A stretch of 35,087 nt of DNA from the UHGV virus genome UHGV-0145327. The stretch is one strand, 5' to 3'. Both the position numbers and the translations under genes were made by a program. Of the stretch, positions 2,636 through 29,129 are shown piece by piece. Below the pieces are notes generated by a model, which did not search any database, was not told where the DNA came from, and was given only the letters and a program-made list of their open reading frames with translations. Each line of letters starts with the position of its first letter. Position 1 is the first letter of the stretch. This DNA is from a virus.

Positions 2636-4477
2636 TTACTGCTGTGTTGCCTCAGTAGCAAACAGCGGTCTGATGGCATTCGCAGCGTTATTTATCGCTC
2701 TTTCATAGGCTGGTGTTCCTGCTTTGGTGTTTGCCAAACGAAGAAGCATATTCCTTGCTGCTTTGGACTCATACAAGCGCATCATTGCACCAAAACCAGC
2801 CTCAAGCCCCATTGATACGCCAAGGGTCGCAGTTGCGCCAATCGTCCTTATCCTGTTGGCTTGCGATTGCCCCGTCTGAGTTACTACATTTGCGGTGTCT
2901 GACCTTGCTGTTTGCTGTAGAACTTCATGAAGAGCATCAAGCTCTTTCATGTGCTTTCCAGAAAAAATAGTGTTGTAAATTTCACCGCCTGACTGAGATT
3001 TCAGCTTATTAACTTCAGTGATGAACTTGGCTGGAGAGTCACCGGCCTTTTCCGCTATTTTGCTGACATAAGCTGCACGCATAGCATCTTTCCCTTTATT
3101 ATCCAATGCGCTCCAGATTCGTTTTACGTCAGATGGTTTTCTGCTTAATACAACGGTATTTATAAGTTCAGGACTGGCTTCACTGCTTGCCTTGTTGAGC
3201 TTGTTGGCAATGTTTTTATTAAGCACCTTATTATAAACGTTTGCATAATCGGAATTTGCTTTAAGGTATTTTGCTGCGTCTGATGCACCGAGGTTTTTAG
3301 CAACTGCGTTACGAAGGTCTTTTGACATTGCATTCTCTACCATATTGGTAGCTGCTTTTGCCTGGTTGGGGAAGACCATAGCATCTCCCTGAACATTAGA
3401 TCTAAATGCTGTTCTGTGCTGACGCAAGAGATCAAACGTAACATCCAAATCAGTTGCAGGGTTTGCTAATTCTTCACGTAGGTTACGCAAGGATGTAAGC
3501 AGGCTTTGATTGGCAGACGTCCCAAGCCGTTCCTGTCTTGCGATCGCTGTATTCAGAGCATTCATGGTATTTGTGGTATCAACTGCGGCATTACCCATTT
3601 TATTGGTGACGTCATTGATAACAGCGCCAGCGGCATCCTTCCGCCCCCTTAACGTGGTGGTAAGAGATTTCACCACATCATCAGGGTTGTACTCACCAAA
3701 CCGGTCAAAATAATTACTTACCAGCTTACTACGCGTTGCATATTGCTCCGCTCGCTTTGAGCCTGTCCCGAGCAAAGCCCCCTCGGCATCCTGAGTTAGG
3801 CCGCGAGTGAAAGCATTTTTCGGCGGGATAACATCAGATGTCATTGGTGTCACACCCATCGATTCTGATGTGGCAATTTTCTTCGCCACTTCTGGCGCAA
3901 TATCACCTTTTATAGCCGTTATTCCACGCCCTATTCCCTTTGCTGCTGCGGAAAGAACACCCTGAGCGGCAAGGTTAACTCCGGCATTTTTAGCTGCATT
4001 TTGTGCGAAATCGCCTTTCTGATTTGCGGCCTCTGCCAGTGATCCAATAGCCATGCTTCCTGCCGTTCCAACTCCTGGAACTAAATACCCACCAATTGTT
4101 TCACCGGCTTGCGCGTAGGGGTCTGTCGGTCTGTCTACTGGACGATAAACATCATCCAAAACCTTGGGTCCACCAAGCCCCTGACTGATTGCATTAATCA
4201 GACTTGCGCCGCCCTGCAATACGTCAAATGGTATGTTTACCAGACCACGACCAGCCTGTTCTGCAATTTGCCCTGCACTTTGACCACCAGTGAGCCAATC
4301 GCCAGCTTGTTGCATCAATGATGGTTCTTCACGTGCTGGTTCATTGCTATCCTGGCTGACAGTTTGTTGCTGAACAGACTGTCCAGCAAAATACTCATCA
4401 ATGGCAGATCCAATATCTTCCGTGCTCGTACCATCAGGGAAGGTAAATGTCTTACCGTTTGCAGTTACTTTCATCAT
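2636..4477 (-). CDS. Internal virion ejection protein, P22 gp16-like (613 aa)
   Basis: Size and position (last gene of the late operon, after the gp20-like gene) match the P22 order 7-20-16; Gly/Ala-rich sequence typical of ejection proteins. Confidence 0.8.
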
Positions 4478-23366: not shown

Positions 23367-23396
23367 AATAAAAAAGGGCTACTGTGTAAATAGCCC
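23367..23396 (-). terminator. Intrinsic terminator after the helicase gene (tR2-equivalent position)
   Basis: On the minus strand, GGGCTA-tttacacag-TAGCCC is followed by TTTTTTATT. Confidence 0.5.
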
Positions 23397-23423
23397 CTGT
23401 TATTAGCTCAGTGATGTAGATGG

Positions 23424-24800
23424 TCATACGTCAGCCCCTTGTGCATATCGTCTGCCACGTGCAGCGGGTGCATTTGATGCTGTGCAAATCTGTCTGGCTT
23501 CATCCTGGTCACATGCAACAAAGTGTCCGTTACAGAACCGCTGGTAAACCGTACCAAGCGAGCCAAAACGGTTTTTCGTCACGATGATTTCAGCAAATGG
23601 CGCGGCGCTACTGTTCTCGTCATATACCGCTTCCCGATAGAGCATGATGATTGAGTCTGCGTCCTGCTCAATGCTTCCTGAATCACGCAAATCTGCGTTT
23701 GTCGGGCGTTTGTTTGGTCGCTTCTCAACATCGCGCGAAAGCTGACTTAGGGAGATCACAGGCGTTTTCAGGTCTTTCGCCATCGCCTTAAGGCTTCCGG
23801 AGATGTGAGCAATTGCGAGGTCGTTGCGATCTGCTTTCGGCTTCTCAATCAGGCCAAGATAATCCGCCATGATGAGTGACAGGTTTGGATTTTCCTGTTT
23901 GTGCCGTTCTGCGATTGAGCGTATTTCTTCGACCGATAACCGCGAGGCATCGACTACCCATACATCCAAATCTGCAAGCTGACTCATGCCGTTAGCAACA
24001 CGCGCCCAGCCCTCGTCATCCATCGATGCAGGATTTCGCAGTACGCTAACCGACATCCTCCCGGCGTTGGCAATGCTTCGCTCTGCAATCTGCAATGCGC
24101 TCATTTCCATTGAGAAAATCAATACTCCGCGCCGGACGTCAGAACCAGGAATAACACGACTTGCAACGCCTTCGGCAATCTTCAGCGCCAGCTCTGTTTT
24201 CCCCATACCAGGACGAGCAGCGATTATCACCAGGTCTTCTGCGTTCATCCCTCCGGTGATGGCGTCAAGTTCTTCGATTCCGGTCTTCAGGGTATCTGAC
24301 TCTTCTCCGTTCCTCAGACGCCTGTCAAGCGTGTCAGTGTAGTCAGTGATGATTTCCCCTAACCGTACCGGTTTAACCTCGTCACGGGGCTTTCTGATGG
24401 CTGAGAGACGCTTTACAAGTTCATCCATCGCCTGACTCGATGCGTCGATGGTTCCGCTCTGAATTGGTTCACGCATTTCATCCATGATTTCCAGCACCAG
24501 ACGGCGGTGATAGTTATCCGCGACCATTCCGGCATATCCCTTCAGGTTTGCGGCACTCGGGCAGTTTTTGCTGGTCATCAGGATTGACGTGAAATGCTCC
24601 TCTCCGCACGCCTCGGCAACCATCAGCGCATCGATTAGGTTTCTGTTTCTCGCCTGCTTGCGAATAACCTCGAAGGCTTTCCGGTAGAGCGGAATTGAAA
24701 ACGCTTCCGGCTCCAGCGTTGCCAGAACGTCACTGGCGGTTGGAGTTAATCCACCAATCAGCAGGCCACCGATAACGCTCGCTTCGATATCTTGTCTCAT
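23424..24800 (-). CDS. Replicative DNA helicase, DnaB family (458 aa; P22 gene 12-like)
   Basis: Walker [19 protein letters not shown] and DnaB C-terminal domain motifs; same length as P22 gp12. Confidence 0.9.
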
Positions 24801-25744
24801 GCAATCCCCCTGTCTGCAAACTTCCCTTCCCGAACTCCCGTTAACGAGTCTTCTCTCAGCAGGTAATCAAAATCAGCCGTCCAGCCCGTGTCGTTGTCTC
24901 CGAAGTAAAACGGCTTGGCCTGATGCACAAACGCCCTGACATACGCTCTGAAACCGTCCACGTTTGGCGTTTTCAGTTGCGGGATGATTTTCTTCAGGCG
25001 ACGTTTGCGTTTCTCGTTGACCGCAACAGCGTGTGGCAGTCTGTCACCGACTTCGGTGTTGTAGGCGTTCAGGAAGGATTCGTAGTCGATTCGTTCTGCC
25101 TTGCGACGTTCAGGTTTAACCTGCCCATCGCCTCCCCCATTGGGGGGTAGGGGGGTATTATTTATATTCTTGTTAATACCTTCTTGTTCATGATGTGCGG
25201 TTGTTTGTGCGGCTTCATGTGCGCTTTCATGTGCGGCATGTGCGCTGAAAGCCGCGCCATTACTGGCTTCGTCATGTGCGGCATCATGTGCGGTTGTTTG
25301 TGCGGCTTCATGTGCGGGTAAATTGTCCATTTTTTGAGCATATTCATGGTAATTTGTGATGGTTATCACACGACCTTTTTGCTTCTCTCCATCAATGGAG
25401 ATCATCCCCTCTTTCACAAAAACCTGAAGCATCCGCTCAACCTGATCACGGCTTGCTGGCTTGCCATGCCTGTCGCATAACTGAAGACCTAAATCAGCTG
25501 CTGTCACAACCAGTTGACCGGGTTGCAGATGCCATTCATGACCTTTGAAATTCGCTTTGTATGGCTTTCTGGCGGCATTCAGGAGAAGGTTTTCCCACAG
25601 GGTGCGAAGATAAACATCTTTCGCCCATGACTGTTTCAGAATGCTCCGGTACAACGGAATGTAACCAGTTTTCTGGTTCTCCATCCTGTTGCTCCTGCGC
25701 TCGTGTGCGGCGCTGAAATCGTAGATTTTTGCTGTATTGCTCAT
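24797..25744 (-). CDS. Replication initiation protein (lambda O-like in role, 315 aa) with an internal His/Ala-rich repeat region
   Basis: Immediately upstream of and overlapping the helicase gene; central repeats [14 protein letters not shown]...[14 protein letters not shown] are encoded by DNA direct repeats; C-terminal ...[19 protein letters not shown]... resembles a conserved phage replication-protein C-terminal domain. Confidence 0.75.
25130..25320. repeat. Candidate replication origin inside the initiator gene: about 35-bp direct repeats with several CATGTGCG(G) units, next to an AT-rich stretch and a C5/G6 inverted repeat
   Basis: catgatgtgcggttgtttgtgcggcttcatgtgcg at 25189-25223 recurs as catcatgtgcggttgtttgtgcggcttcatgtgcg at 25283-25317; further CATGTGCG units at about 25229, 25238 and 25273; AT-rich tattatttatattcttgttaatacc at 25156-25180; CCCCCATTGGGGGG at 25133-25146. 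Confidence 0.5.
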
Positions 25745-26041: not shown

Positions 26042-26335
26042 TTAAAATTCCATTTGTATTTGATCAGAACGCTCGGTTGCCGCCGGGCGTTTTTTATTGG
26101 TGAGAATCGAAGCAACTTGTCGTGCCAATCGAGCCATATCGTCGTCAACGACGCCCCATTCAAGAACAGCAAGCAGCATTGAGAACTTTGGAATCCAATC
26201 CCTCTTCCACCTGCTGATCTGCGACTTATCAACTCCCACAGCTTCCGCTGTCTTCTCAGTTCCAAGCATTGCGATTTTGTTAAGCAACGCACTCTCGATT
26301 CGTAGAGCCTCGTTGCGTTTGTTTGCACGAACCAT
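26042..26335 (-). CDS. cII: Transcriptional activator CII (97 aa)
   Basis: MVRANKRNEALRIESALLNKIAMLGTEKTAEAVGVDKSQISRWKRDWIPKFSMLLAVLEWGVVDDDMARLARQVASILTNKKRPAATERSDQIQMEF matches lambda CII as recalled; the leader AGGAAATACTTACAT-ATG is also lambda-like. Confidence 0.95.
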   Translation of the reverse strand: MVRANKRNEALRIESALLNKIAMLGTEKTAEAVGVDKSQISRWKRDWIPKFSMLLAVLEWGVVDDDMARLARQVASILTNKKRPAATERSDQIQMEF

Positions 26336-26393: not shown

Positions 26394-26436
26394 TCCCGCA
26401 TTTCGGCGGGAATGAGGACCATGACTGTTAAAGAGC
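26394..26436 (-). promoter_or_regulatory. nutR: boxA (CGCTCTTTAAC) and boxB hairpin (TCCCGC-cgaaat-GCGGGA) between cro and cII
   Basis: Read on the minus strand: accGCTCTTTAAcag ... tTCCCGCCGAAATGCGGGAat. boxA precedes boxB as in lambdoid nut sites. Confidence 0.6.
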
Positions 26437-26444
26437 GGTGTTAC

Positions 26445-26669
26445 TTATGCTGCCTGATTCGGTTTTGGAAACAGGTGTGGCAAATCGGGGCGAATTTCGT
26501 AAGCCTTGATCTGCCCTCCAGTGGCGTTAACGATGGCGGTAACTTTCTCTGGAGAGACCAACCCGCCTTTCAGCCATTTGTGTACTGCTGGCTGCGTTAC
26601 ACCACACTTGTCGGCAAGGCGCTTTTGGCTACCGACAATTTTCAAGGCTCGTTGAATTACTAAATTCAT
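26445..26669 (-). CDS. cro: Cro-like HTH repressor (74 aa from MNLVIQRALK)
   Basis: Small HTH protein (QKRLADKCGVTQPAVHKWLKG) transcribed divergently from cI; AAGAGG Shine-Dalgarno 7 nt before the MNLV ATG. Confidence 0.75.
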   Translation of the reverse strand: MNLVIQRALKIVGSQKRLADKCGVTQPAVHKWLKGGLVSPEKVTAIVNATGGQIKAYEIRPDLPHLFPKPNQAA

Positions 26670-26705
26670 GAGCATACCTCTTGTGGTCATTACTTATAAC
26701 CAAAG

Positions 26706-26768
26706 ATAACTCAAGTTATAAAAAATAGCAATAACCTTTGTTATTTTACTTTGGATAACCGTAGTTAT
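26706..26768. promoter_or_regulatory. OR operator cluster: three ATAAC-N4-GTTAT sites between cro and cI (PR/PRM region)
   Basis: ATAACtcaaGTTAT (26706-26719), ATAACctttGTTAT (26731-26744), ATAACcgtaGTTAT (26755-26768). Confidence 0.6.
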
Positions 26769-26780
26769 AGATTTGTGGGT

Positions 26781-27488
26781 ATGAAAACATTCGCAGAAAG
26801 ACTAAATGCAGCCATGAGCTCAGCAGGGGTATCACAATCACAGCTTGCTGACATGGTTGGAATATCTCAGCCAGCCATACAGAAGATGTCGTCCGGTAAA
26901 ACAAACGGATCTCGCAAGATGGTTGAATTAGCCAATGCTTTAAAAGTGCGCCCTGAATGGCTTAGTTCTGGTATTGGTGAAATGAGGGATGGTGCACATG
27001 AAGAACCATCCAATGTCCGTGAGTCATCTTTAAAAGCTGTGGTATGGGAAGACATTAAAAGAAACGATGACGAGTTTGTTGCGTTGCCTCTTCTTAACGT
27101 TTCGCTTTCAGCTGGAAGCGGTAGCTGCGAGCTAGAGGAATCATCGGAGTTCTCTTTGGTTTTCAGAAAGCACTATCTGAAAAAGATGGGAGTATCTGAA
27201 AGATCAGCCAAGCTAGTTAGGGTTGTAGGGCAAAGCATGGAACCAACGCTTCACGATGGCGATGTTGTTGGTGTTAACACGCAAGATACCACCATCAGAG
27301 ATGGTAAAACCTACGCTATTTGCCAGTCTGATTTGTTACGAGTAAAAACATTAATCGCCACCCCTACATCGGTGATAATCAGATCAATAAATCGCGAAGA
27401 GTACCCGGATGAAGTAATGGATAGAGATGAATTTCATGAAACCGTAAGGATTATTGGCAGAGTATTCTGGTCGTCTCATAGTTGGTAA
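26781..27488 (+). CDS. cI: CI-type prophage repressor with HTH and LexA-like S24 autocleavage domain (235 aa from MKTFAERL)
   Basis: HTH QSQLADMVGISQPAIQKM; C-terminal S24 motifs (VVGQSMEPTLHDGDVV Ser, downstream Lys). ATG 26751 is an alternative start but would overlap the third operator. Confidence 0.85.
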   Translation: MKTFAERLNAAMSSAGVSQSQLADMVGISQPAIQKMSSGKTNGSRKMVELANALKVRPEWLSSGIGEMRDGAHEEPSNVRESSLKAVVWEDIKRNDDEFVALPLLNVSLSAGSGSCELEESSEFSLVFRKHYLKKMGVSERSAKLVRVVGQSMEPTLHDGDVVGVNTQDTTIRDGKTYAICQSDLLRVKTLIATPTSVIIRSINREEYPDEVMDRDEFHETVRIIGRVFWSSHSW

Positions 27489-27528: not shown

Positions 27529-27825
27529 ATGGAATTTCTGATAGTTTTTGTTGTTGTTTTGGTCATCATTCTTTTTGTTTTGCTAAGCATTAGTAAAAAG
27601 CTATCTCAAGTGATTGAACATAGCTCTAATCGCGCAAAAGAAGAAGAGCATCTAATTGATATAAAAGAGATTCTCTCTGATATAAAAATCACATTAGATG
27701 AAATAAAATACACAACAGATCTAATTGAACAGTATAAAATACCAACCCCAAACGAGAGAAAAGCAATAGATCAATATCGTATTGACTTAGAAATCGACGA
27801 AATGCTAAGCAAAAGAAAAGACTAA
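27529..27825 (+). CDS. Small membrane-anchored hypothetical protein (98 aa) in the rexAB position, very AT-rich
   Basis: Directly downstream of cI on the same strand; N-terminal hydrophobic segment MEFLIVFVVVLVIILFVLLSI followed by a charged, helix-prone region; followed by an intrinsic terminator. Confidence 0.6.
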   Translation: MEFLIVFVVVLVIILFVLLSISKKLSQVIEHSSNRAKEEEHLIDIKEILSDIKITLDEIKYTTDLIEQYKIPTPNERKAIDQYRIDLEIDEMLSKRKD

Positions 27826-27830
27826 AAACA

Positions 27831-27858
27831 CCCGGCCTCAGCGCCGGGTTTTCTTTTC
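27831..27858 (+). terminator. Intrinsic terminator ending the cI/rex-slot operon
   Basis: CCCGGC-ctcagc-GCCGGG followed by TTTTCTTTTCC, 5 bp after the stop codon. Confidence 0.65.
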
Positions 27859-27978
27859 CTGCCGTTCACCACCCAATCACCCATCATCATCATAGACAAG
27901 CATCAAGCCAAAGGTAACACCTTCACCCCGCACGCAAGCCCTCAAACACCAATCAATCAGCAACATTTACAAAAATAA

Positions 27979-28064
27979 AATACCTTTGTTATCCATCACT
28001 TATAACTTATTTACCACAAAATATAAATTAGGTTATTGACCACACCTATAACCTAAGTTATCTT
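27979..28064. promoter_or_regulatory. OL/PL region: operator-like sites of the same ATAAC-N4-GTTAT family and a candidate PL (-35 TTGACC at 28036-28041)
   Basis: ATAACctaaGTTAT at 28048-28061 is a full site; ATACCtttgTTAT near 27980-27992 is a degenerate copy; TTGACC with TATCTT 17 bp downstream, pointing toward N. Confidence 0.5.
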
Positions 28065-28110
28065 TAAGCCATCAGCAGGGCGCTGGTAGCCAAACGGAAC
28101 AGATTGGCAG

Positions 28111-28151
28111 GCTCTTTAACATTGATGGGATTGTCCCGCCGAAATGCGGGA
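28111..28151 (+). promoter_or_regulatory. nutL: boxA (GCTCTTTAA) and boxB hairpin (TCCCGC-cgaaat-GCGGGA) upstream of N
   Basis: boxA at 28111-28119; boxB at 28134-28151 has the identical sequence to the boxB found in nutR. Confidence 0.6.
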
Positions 28152-28258
28152 ACCAAAGAGTAGTTGGCTTTGGGGTGGCGTGAAGTGCAGCTGCACGACG
28201 GCAACCGGAAGATAAGCACCCGGCGCGTCACCGCCAAAGTCAATCATCGGAGGTCAAC

Positions 28259-28531
28259 ATGACAGTAGTCATTACATATCTGGCTGACGATAACGCCAGA
28301 AATCGCCGCAGAGCACGCAGACAGGCTCAACGTGAACAGGCAATGCAAGAGCAGCGACTGGCGCGAAAAATTGCGCTAAAGCTCTCTGGTTGCGTCAGAG
28401 CAGATAAAGCAGCATCACTCGGAAGCCTTCGCTGCAAGAAGGCAGATGAATGCAGTGGAAGTATTTGCCTGCCAAACGTAGCCATTTACGCGGCAGGCTA
28501 CCGGAAATCAAAACAACTGACGGCGAGATGA
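28259..28531 (+). CDS. N: N-type transcription antiterminator (90 aa; P22 gp24-like)
   Basis: Arginine-rich motif DNARNRRRARRQAQREQ near the N-terminus; C-terminal LPNVAIYAAGYRKSKQLTAR matches the P22 gp24 C-terminus (LPGVALYAAGHRKSKQITAR) as recalled. Confidence 0.85.
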   Translation: MTVVITYLADDNARNRRRARRQAQREQAMQEQRLARKIALKLSGCVRADKAASLGSLRCKKADECSGSICLPNVAIYAAGYRKSKQLTAR

Positions 28532-28547
28532 TAAATTAATTTGCTAA

Positions 28548-29129
28548 TTACTTGTTTTTGCCATGCTTATACTGAGCGATAAGTTCATCCATAAGACTGT
28601 CTTTCTTCCCAGCAAACCTAATGTAGCACTCATTTCTATAGCGTTCCGGGATAACAAAACGGTCGATTTCAGGATATCCAGTAGCAGAAGGTACCCGAAT
28701 AAGAAGCCCTTTTTCGAGCAATGAGATTGCTTCAGGGCTTCCCTTTTCTGTCTTTAGCTGGTTATTAGCGGCTACAGCGAATGCCAAATACGCTCTTTCT
28801 CCAAGAGTTAACGAATCAAACAAATCTTGCACGTATTTCTCTTCTTTAGATTTGCGCTTCTGAGCAGCGAATATCTCAATTCTTTCAGTCACAGCGTGAT
28901 AAGCGGAATTAACAACGCCGTTAAGCACATAGCTAACGCAAAACAACAGGATGTAATACATCCAGTAATGAGGAAGGATTTCTGGATTATGCAGGTTTAT
29001 CCATTCTTTTACGCTTACAGGCATAACAATAATCAATATGATTAGGATGATTAGCATATGAATCAACTGTTTAAGTGTCATTCCTTGCAGGAAAAAATGC
29101 ATTAGTTCCTGCCACCATGAGTTGTTCAT
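28548..29129 (-). CDS. sieB: Superinfection exclusion protein SieB-like membrane protein (193 aa)
   Basis: Lies next to N on the opposite strand as sieB does in lambda; similar size (about 192 aa); N-terminal transmembrane segments (LIHMLIILIILIIVMPV, YWMYYILLFCVSYVL). Confidence 0.75.
   Translation of the reverse strand: MNNSWWQELMHFFLQGMTLKQLIHMLIILIILIIVMPVSVKEWINLHNPEILPHYWMYYILLFCVSYVLNGVVNSAYHAVTERIEIFAAQKRKSKEEKYVQDLFDSLTLGERAYLAFAVAANNQLKTEKGSPEAISLLEKGLLIRVPSATGYPEIDRFVIPERYRNECYIRFAGKKDSLMDELIAQYKHGKNK

Follow-up and report, generated by a model that had tools for sequence, protein, structure and literature searches.

Palindromic ATAAC-N4-GTTAT sites as highly probable CI/Cro operators of the lysis-lysogeny switch in a P22-like lambdoid prophage

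Sites and promoters of the immunity region

The virus genome UHGV-0145327 was analysed as one stretch of 35,087 nucleotides (the window, within which all coordinates below are given), and the subject of this work is its immunity region, in which the gene cro (26445..26669, minus strand) and the repressor gene cI (26781..27488, plus strand) diverge from a gap of 111 bp. Cro (74 amino acids) is an all-alpha helix-turn-helix (HTH) protein of the YdaS/P22-Cro type with the recognition helix TQPAVHKW, and CI (235 amino acids) is composed of HTH_3 and Peptidase_S24 domains (Pfam). The gap holds three 14-bp palindromes of the form ATAAC-N4-GTTAT, and a fourth is situated beyond cI, at the leftward promoter PL. 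We consider it very probable that these palindromes are the operators on which CI and Cro act in the lysis-lysogeny switch of a P22-like lambdoid prophage. An earlier interpretation made from the letters alone (the sequence-only reading) had proposed such a family as common to the right (OR) and left (OL) operator regions, and the four exact copies, three at OR and one at PL, agree with it.

Exact matches to the palindrome (ATAACNNNNGTTAT) number four in the window, at 26706-26719 (OR1), 26731-26744 (OR2), 26755-26768 (OR3) and 28048-28061 (OL1), against 0.01 expected from dinucleotide-preserving shuffles (n = 100), none of which reached four. Allowing one mismatch raises the count to six against 0.65 expected, the two added sites being 28023-28036 (ATAAATTAGGTTAT) and 23390-23403 (ATAGCCCCTGTTAT); the latter was set aside as a further operator, since it corresponds to the approximately one chance match expected at this stringency. 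At two mismatches the window contains 29 matches, with 12 expected.

The three OR sites had been described as evenly spaced between cro and cI, and their start-to-start distances are indeed 25 and 24 bp. OR1 (ATAACtcaaGTTAT), the cro-proximal site, overlaps by 3 bp the -10 hexamer of a putative promoter PR on the minus strand (26703..26731; TTGCTA at 26731..26726, a 17-bp spacer and TATCTT at 26708..26703), which is followed by the cro Shine-Dalgarno sequence AAGAGG (26682..26677, minus strand). OR2 (ATAACctttGTTAT) shares 1 bp with the PR -35 hexamer and is directly adjacent to the -35 hexamer of PRM, the putative promoter of cI on the plus strand (26745..26773; TTTACT at 26745-26750, a 17-bp spacer and TAGATT at 26768-26773), whose two hexamers enclose the cI-proximal OR3 (ATAACcgtaGTTAT). 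The TAnAnT hexamer and the TTnA of PRM are kept in five divergent phages. The predicted PRM start coincides with the cI ATG or precedes it by 1 nt, and thus the cI mRNA would be leaderless; no conserved Shine-Dalgarno sequence for cI was found in the alignment of the five phages. An extra ATAAC half-site (26696..26700) directly downstream of the PR -10 hexamer occurs in the window and in phage PA28 and is absent from HK639 and Hafnia, so it is probably not essential.

On the other side of cI, a promoter scan (threshold of 9/12 against the sigma-70 consensus) returned PL on the plus strand at 28036..28064, with TTGACC (28036-28041), a 17-bp spacer and TATCTT (28059-28064). OL1 (ATAACctaaGTTAT), identified by its exact match and by conservation at OL, has 3 bp in common with the PL -10 hexamer, and the one-mismatch site at 28023..28036, OL2 (ATAAAttagGTTAT), overlaps the -35 hexamer by 1 bp at exactly 25 bp from OL1; these overlaps are identical to those of OR1 and OR2 at PR. 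Further upstream lie a decayed site at 28002..28015 (ATAACttatTTACC) that has kept just its left half, an isolated ATAAC at 28002-28006, and a distal element at 27979..27992 (AATACctttGTTAT / AATACCTTTGTTAT; two mismatches), with the right half kept and the left half degenerate. The sequence-only reading had correctly placed the full copy at 28048-28061 and the degenerate copy at 27979-27992, but its list for OL was incomplete, OL2 having been overlooked.

Conservation of the sites and covariation with the recognition helix

The immunity region is 99.2% identical in the Stx1a-converting phage Stx1a_10051, and equally so in the P22-like prophage of strain H19 and of many O26:H11 genomes; the cro-cI segment is 94.7% identical in the O157:H7 Stx1 phage SH2026Stx1, and the immunity region is 78.5% identical in PA28 and ten Sp15-like Stx1 phages. 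In all these copies the three OR sites are found at 25/24 bp, together with a perfect OL1 and the deviant OL2, while the central four bases vary; the OL2 deviation (ATAAA/ATAAT) recurs in every relative. The same layout is present in PA28, SH2026Stx1, HK639, Entomohabitans, Hafnia and Enterobacter bugandensis, even as CI identity drops to 41-43%; OR1 keeps its position relative to the cI start codon (-74/-75) in four of these, namely PA28, Entomohabitans, Hafnia and HK639. The HK639 sites are ATAACccaaGTTAT, ATAACctttGTTAT and ATAACctcgGTTAT at OR, and ATAACttatGTGAT, ATAAAttagGTTAT and ATAACtaagGTTAT at OL.

A motif-blind alignment of the whole cro-cI intergenic region of five phages (the window, PA28, Entomohabitans, Hafnia and HK639) places this conservation in the half-sites, where 28 of 30 positions are invariant, compared with 3/12 central positions (among them the TT of OR2, invariant in the five phages) and 12/69 in the rest of the intergenic region (half-sites vs this last group, Fisher p = 4.7e-13). 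No further repeated element was found by this alignment in the 111-bp region. Half-sites are conserved at OL as they are at OR: the right half of the 27979 element (GTTATC) is invariant in five relatives, and the position of the 28002 element is occupied by a full site in HK639 (ATAACTTATGTGAT) and in E. bugandensis. The information content of the operators, a partly circular measure, lies between 1.4 and 2.0 bits over positions 1-5 and 10-14 but between 0.3 and 0.5 over positions 6-9.

The sites are also inherited together with the DNA-binding part of the repressor. In the SQPAIQK loci (named after the CI recognition helix described below) of Hafnia, Gilliamella and E. bugandensis, CI is 40-43% identical overall because its C-terminal domain has been exchanged, while the CI N-terminal domain, the operators and Cro (76-85% identical, helix QPAVHKW) travel together; a Cro identity of 76-85% is likewise seen in PA28, Hafnia and HK639. 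Where the S24 domain has been swapped (loci L013, L031 and L069; P0092, P0105, P0110 and P0117), the CI N-terminal domain is ~85% identical against 41-51% overall, which implies recombination inside cI near the hinge, at approximately residues 70-95.

The N-terminal domain of CI matches the 434 repressor with an E-value of ~1e-7 (8e-8 to 7e-7) and ~38% identity over 60 residues (phmmer against the PDB, residues 4-67). Its recognition helix is SQPAIQK (Q30-K35), and residue n of CI corresponds to residue n-2 of 434, so that Q30, P31, A32, Q34, K35 and R45 stand for Gln28, Gln29, Ser30, Glu32, Gln33 and Arg43, respectively. In the 434 co-crystals attributed to Anderson, Ptashne and Harrison (in 1987) and to Aggarwal and co-workers (in 1988), Gln28 reportedly reads A1, Gln29 positions 2-3 and Gln33 positions 4-5, and the central operator bases are said to be left without contact. 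In line with the first of these pairings, Q30 is invariant in 22 CI homologues, and all operator classes have A at position 1.

CI homologues across Enterobacterales spanning 99% to ~44% identity were used for the comparison of helix and half-site. Sixty genomic loci were taken, of which 56 related ones were tallied after being classed by their residues at the positions of the recognition helix, and in each the 5-N4-5 palindromes were counted over the 130 bp preceding cI. The class half-site was represented by two or more sites in 5/6 loci with SQPAIQK (ATAAC), 16/18 with SQAAIQK (ACAAC), 12/18 with xQPSxWK (ATAGC; four more of these loci have ATAAC-like sites), 4/6 with xQSSxWK and all eight with AQSSxNK (ATCGC in both). 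No SQPAIQK locus carried two or more sites of another class, and none of the 18 SQAAIQK loci carried two or more ATAAC sites. In every helix class the operator measures 14 bp and begins with A. The ATAAC class is therefore one base away from its sister ACAAC, the two helices being one residue apart (Pro vs Ala). Among the SQPSIWK loci, L014, L016, L023 and L030 have asymmetric operators such as ATAACttaaGGTAT, with ATAAC and ATACC halves, at -49 and -25, which suggests that this class reads position 4 in a relaxed or asymmetric way.

The relationship also holds in the opposite direction, from site to helix. A scan of IMG/VR for pairs of ATAAC-N4-GTTAT sites separated by 10-11 bp returned at least 120 contigs, with 70 distinct OR sequences among the matches listed. 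An xQPA[IVY] helix ([S/T/K/A]-Q-P-A-[I/V/Y]) is found no further than 700 bp away in 104 of the 120 contigs among the matches listed, compared with 3/114 control windows taken from the same contigs at a distance of at least 2.5 kb. Among these listed matches, SQPAIQK occurs in 90 contigs and the Cro helix S/TQPAVHK in 94, and further CI lineages with SQPAVQK, SQPAYQA, SQPAIAK and SQPAIKK are represented. In the window itself, the recognition helices of CI and Cro both start with Q-P-A. Whether this triplet at the helix start is a portable ATAAC determinant, used by CI (434 fold), by Cro (YdaS/P22-Cro fold) and by several independent CI lineages, is in our estimation an evenly balanced question. 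The same reading includes the proposal, to which we give roughly even chances, that the single natural change from Pro to Ala (SQPAIQK to SQAAIQK) goes with the single one from T to C at operator position 2 (ATAAC to ACAAC); if true, this pair would constitute a minimal and experimentally tractable switch of immunity specificity. A group of GC-rich contigs (60-65% GC; L087, L140, L117 and L096) shows ATAAC-N4-GTTAT pairs flanking a TTGAC -35 hexamer next to a CI with the helix SQVSIAK, possibly an independent way to read the same site.

Proposed switch, rival explanations and relation to known immunity systems

By analogy with lambda and 434, from which binding, cooperativity, PRM activation, the order of site occupancy and the residue-base contacts are extrapolated, dimers of CI and dimers of Cro would bind the ATAAC-N4-GTTAT sites, each consisting of two contacted 5-bp half-sites around four largely uncontacted central bases, as in 434. 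CI at OR1 and OR2 would block PR at its -10 and -35 hexamers, and from OR2, beside the PRM -35 hexamer, it would activate its own leaderless transcript. OR3, inside PRM, would serve negative autoregulation and is the expected preferred site of Cro. OL1 and OL2 would block PL in a PR-like geometry, with two weaker elements upstream. Upon SOS induction, RecA-stimulated self-cleavage of CI through its S24 domain would free PR and PL: the Peptidase_S24 match has an E-value of 1.4e-17 (Pfam), A111-G112, S152 and K189 are present, and G112, S152 and K189 are invariant across the 22 CI homologues, so that by its Ala-Gly site and Ser/Lys dyad CI fits among the LexA/CI-type self-cleaving repressors. 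That the sites are CI/Cro operators setting the immunity specificity had been claimed by the sequence-only reading, and the promoter overlap, the selective conservation of half-sites and the two-way covariation with the helix bear this out.

Several points weigh against this interpretation. The whole case is computational. The promoter scan returned neither PR nor PRM, each scoring 8/12 and thus falling below the threshold of 9, so both were assigned by eye and conservation only. The helix classes were drawn up after inspection of the data, and the loci are phylogenetically non-independent: the 120 listed contigs reduce to 70 OR sequences, and SQPAIQK is represented by six distinct loci. Sixteen of the 120 listed contigs, which were selected by motif, have no QPA helix nearby; some of these are the GC-rich ones with SQVSIAK, and others lack a nearby repressor. 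A CI of the SQVSIAK type beside the motif means that QPA is not the sole reader of the site, or that some of the matches are due to chance. Finally, a single site precedes cI in the Gilliamella locus (L021).

Other explanations were weighed against the same evidence. Chance palindromes, or promoter-associated sequence that no protein binds, would suit an AT-rich region in which two-mismatch matches are common (29 found and 12 expected), but such an origin is effectively refuted by the four exact copies where 0.01 were expected, the fixed spacing of 24-25 bp, the conservation specific to half-sites and the two-way covariation with the helix. It is very unlikely that the palindromes are bound by just one of the two proteins, or by a third one (a host factor or another phage regulator), with CI specificity residing elsewhere: even though CI and Cro come from different HTH families, both helices begin with Q-P-A, both proteins are co-conserved with the sites across the exchange of the CI C-terminal domain, a change in the CI helix class alone is accompanied by a change of the palindrome at the same positions, and the 111-bp intergenic region offers no second repeated element. 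We also regard as improbable that the region is a variant of an already footprinted immunity group (e.g., 434, 21, phi80, HK022, HK97 or 933W). In its operator geometry (14 bp, 5-N4-5, A1) and in the fold of the CI N-terminal domain it does resemble 434; nonetheless, in a collection of 50,697 phage records the identity of this domain reaches or exceeds 80% in just 22, all others staying below 60%, and the systems compared directly (lambda, HK620 and H-19B) differ, as does 434 in helix and half-site. The 22 records comprise Stx1 phages, HK639 and two prophage fragments. The 14-mers of the operators are missing from the searchable literature, and the HK639 record annotates no operators.

We thus return to the CI/Cro operators, whose specificity the data support as a class of its own (ATAAC) within the 434-type family, combined with a promoter architecture resembling that of lambda. 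With 434 the region shares the five-helix HTH_3 N-terminal domain, a twofold symmetric operator of 14 bp with four variable central base pairs, a Gln at the first helix position together with A1, and the equivalent of Arg43 (R45); judged from domain, operator length and the Gln/A1 pairing, CI can be assigned to the 434-type structural family. The 434 operators measure 14 bp and read ACAA-N6-TTGT, and the helices of 434 repressor and Cro share an initial QQ, as those of CI and Cro share QPA here. On the other hand, 434 has the helix TQQSIEQ and the half-site ACAA(G/T/A), which discards identity with imm434 (SQPAIQK and ATAAC here), and 434 Cro is a paralogue of the repressor N-terminal domain, whereas Cro in the window belongs to the YdaS/P22-Cro/Xfaso family (Pfam YdaS_toxin 1.1e-17 and P22_Cro 1.1e-5; closest solved structure Xfaso 1 Cro, 3bd1, 5e-5). 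From these differences in helix, half-site and Cro family, heteroimmunity with 434 is predicted.

The likeness to lambda lies in the arrangement: three sites spaced at 24-25 bp in the gap from which cI and cro diverge, O1 and O2 over the -10 and -35 hexamers and O3 over PRM, a PRM -10 hexamer TAGATT followed by a leaderless cI (matching the predicted start and the missing Shine-Dalgarno sequence described above), and S24 autocleavage. The cII gene is 98% identical, with a cII box of identical type. The differences concern the operators, annotated as 17 bp in lambda and unrelated in sequence to the 14-bp sites of the window, and the OL-OR distance of ~1.3 kb, with one small open reading frame (ORF) replacing rexAB. 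Imm-lambda was rejected, CI being 23% identical to lambda CI and the operators not being of the 17-bp TATCACCGC type. P22 C2 and Cro operators are of 18 bp, and imm-P22 was likewise rejected, as the P22 C2 N-terminal domain gives a marginal match (E 0.0098) and the best P22-group matches are ~31-32% identical. The sequence-only view that the operators are not those of lambda, 434 or P22 is therefore upheld. Its further proposal of a distinct immunity group needs qualification: the sequence is distinct, but the kind is not, being the 14-bp 5-N4-5 type of 434 with the ACAAC sister class one base off; nor is the cassette new as sequence, as it is already present in the sequenced HK639 and in several Stx1 phages, among them PA28, SH2026Stx1 and Stx1a_10051.

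The OL-N segment matches HK620, mEpX2 and HK630 at ~89% identity, and in HK620 (AF335538) this resemblance extends over PL, OL, nutL and N. Its OL scaffold aligns without gaps, so that the annotated OL1, OL2 and OL3 of HK620 coincide with the OL positions of the window, the 27979 element corresponding to OL3. Between window 27971-28260 and positions 3001-3290 of the HK620 locus (L003), the alignment is base-for-base at ~89%, with the operator half-site bases alone exchanged and the mosaic junction coinciding with OL1 and the PL -10 hexamer. Imm-HK620 was nevertheless discarded, its annotated operators being AATAC-N5-GTATT (15-17 bp) and its CI and Cro unrelated in sequence. The phage H-19B, suggested by the 99.2% match in strain H19, was also set aside: the H19 copy sits in a separate P22-like prophage, and imm-H-19B shows no significant CI/Cro similarity and TTTATCA-like intergenic repeats. 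In the next-closest phage CI, that of Yersinia phage YP3 (41% identity), no ATAAC-N4-GTTAT sites were found. Although ATAAC is also contained in OR1 of the BAA2326 repressor, the operators of this different repressor are asymmetric 16-18-mers and do not belong to the same set (Chakraborty et al., PMC5977221).

By helix, N-terminal domain, Cro, operators and layout, the window appears to belong to the HK639 / Sp15-PA28 / SH2026Stx1 immunity class. HK639, PA28/Sp15, SH2026Stx1 and Stx1a_10051 agree with the window at OR and OL in the half-sites and in how many sites there are and how they are spaced, and they have the same helix in a CI N-terminal domain of 85-100% identity, and a Cro of 82-100%; they differ in the central four bases, the inter-operator spacers, and the virion and replication modules. 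HK639, a plaque-forming Hong Kong coliphage known for antitermination by put RNA, differs additionally in its CI C-terminal domain and in having put RNA in place of N/nut.

As far as could be found, the ATAAC-N4-GTTAT operators have been neither described nor annotated before. The search for an exact match to a well-characterised immunity region, which the sequence-only reading had named as what would contradict it, led only to sequenced regions in which operators are neither described nor annotated. The GenBank record of HK639 marks just a "putative pR" and a "putative pL", and no operator annotation is present in the records of HK639, the PA28/Sp15-type phages, SH2026Stx1 and Stx1a_10051. 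The 14-mers of the window, PA28 and SH2026Stx1 and the generic notations are absent from the searchable literature (8 million papers), which lacks several older relevant papers, and the two half-sites together with "operator" and "repressor" gave no match there. HK639 immunity is not treated in the examined literature mentioning that phage, and a paper on CI clades of Stx phages does not deal with operators (PMC8951638).

Distribution, significance and neighbouring genes

The segment comprising cro, OR and the N-terminal domain of cI is present in 163 of 5,426 complete E. coli genomes (~3%), in 102 of them at 99% identity or more, and its annotation is in every case a generic one (XRE or transcriptional regulator). 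These genomes hold 166 copies of the cassette, i.e., approximately three carry two prophages of the same immunity, which would not be expected of homoimmune phages. Whether a temperate phage can coexist with others in a strain, superinfect it or be induced from it is determined by immunity specificity, and the cassette controls several Stx1-converting phages (SH2026Stx1, Stx1a_10051 and the PA28/Sp15 type) as well as a common P22-like prophage of O26:H11-type strains. Once the operator sequence is known, cross-immunity can be predicted from sequence and reporters or decoys can be designed; the comparison of helices and half-sites, with four related operator classes against four helix variants, provides a small natural data set on specificity change in the 434 type. 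Should the portable Q-P-A determinant be real, non-Stx P22-like prophages (O26, O111) would share immunity with Stx1 phages of O157 and O26, and, as a corollary, resident prophages could gate the acquisition and induction of Stx1 phages. The understanding of such switches is unchanged by these results, which add one more specificity class.

Between cI and the intrinsic terminator of its operon (27830..27849, plus strand; the tIMM equivalent, at the position of the annotated HK620 tIMM), the rex position is occupied by orf98 (27529..27825, plus strand), which encodes a small membrane-anchored protein of 98 amino acids with an N-terminal transmembrane helix, a match to phrog_18389 (function unknown) and no Pfam family. 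It is presumably co-transcribed with cI and probably expressed in the lysogen, being a candidate exclusion or moron gene. Downstream of PL come nutL (28110..28151, plus strand), with a boxA-like GGCTCTTTAAC and the boxB TCCCGC-CGAAAT-GCGGGA (28134-28151), ~89% identical to the annotated nutL of HK620, and the antiterminator gene N (28259..28531, plus strand; 90 amino acids, Pfam N_peptide 1.1e-15). Just past N, an antisense ORF of 193 amino acids (28548-29129, minus strand) matches phrog_1301, 'superinfection exclusion; inhibits SieB', with E = 1e-122.

On the cro side, the boxB of nutR (26394..26411, minus strand) forms the same hairpin as nutL, the 18 nt being identical in both and common to HK620-type N proteins, and hence the N/nut module differs in origin from the adjacent lambda-type cII and from the immunity cassette. 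The gene cII (26042..26332, minus strand), whose 98% identity with lambda cII confirms the lambda-like flank noted earlier, contains the cII box (TTGCGTTTGTTTGC, 26313-26326, plus strand) of the PRE -35 region. The remainder of the window is that of a P22-like podovirus, matching JEP4, E212 and CUS-3 at ~96% identity across 57-63% of the first 25 kb. The O-like replication-initiator gene (24797-25744, minus strand) includes a repetitive stretch at ~25160-25350 with His/Ala-rich repeats in several frames, probably the iterons of the origin.

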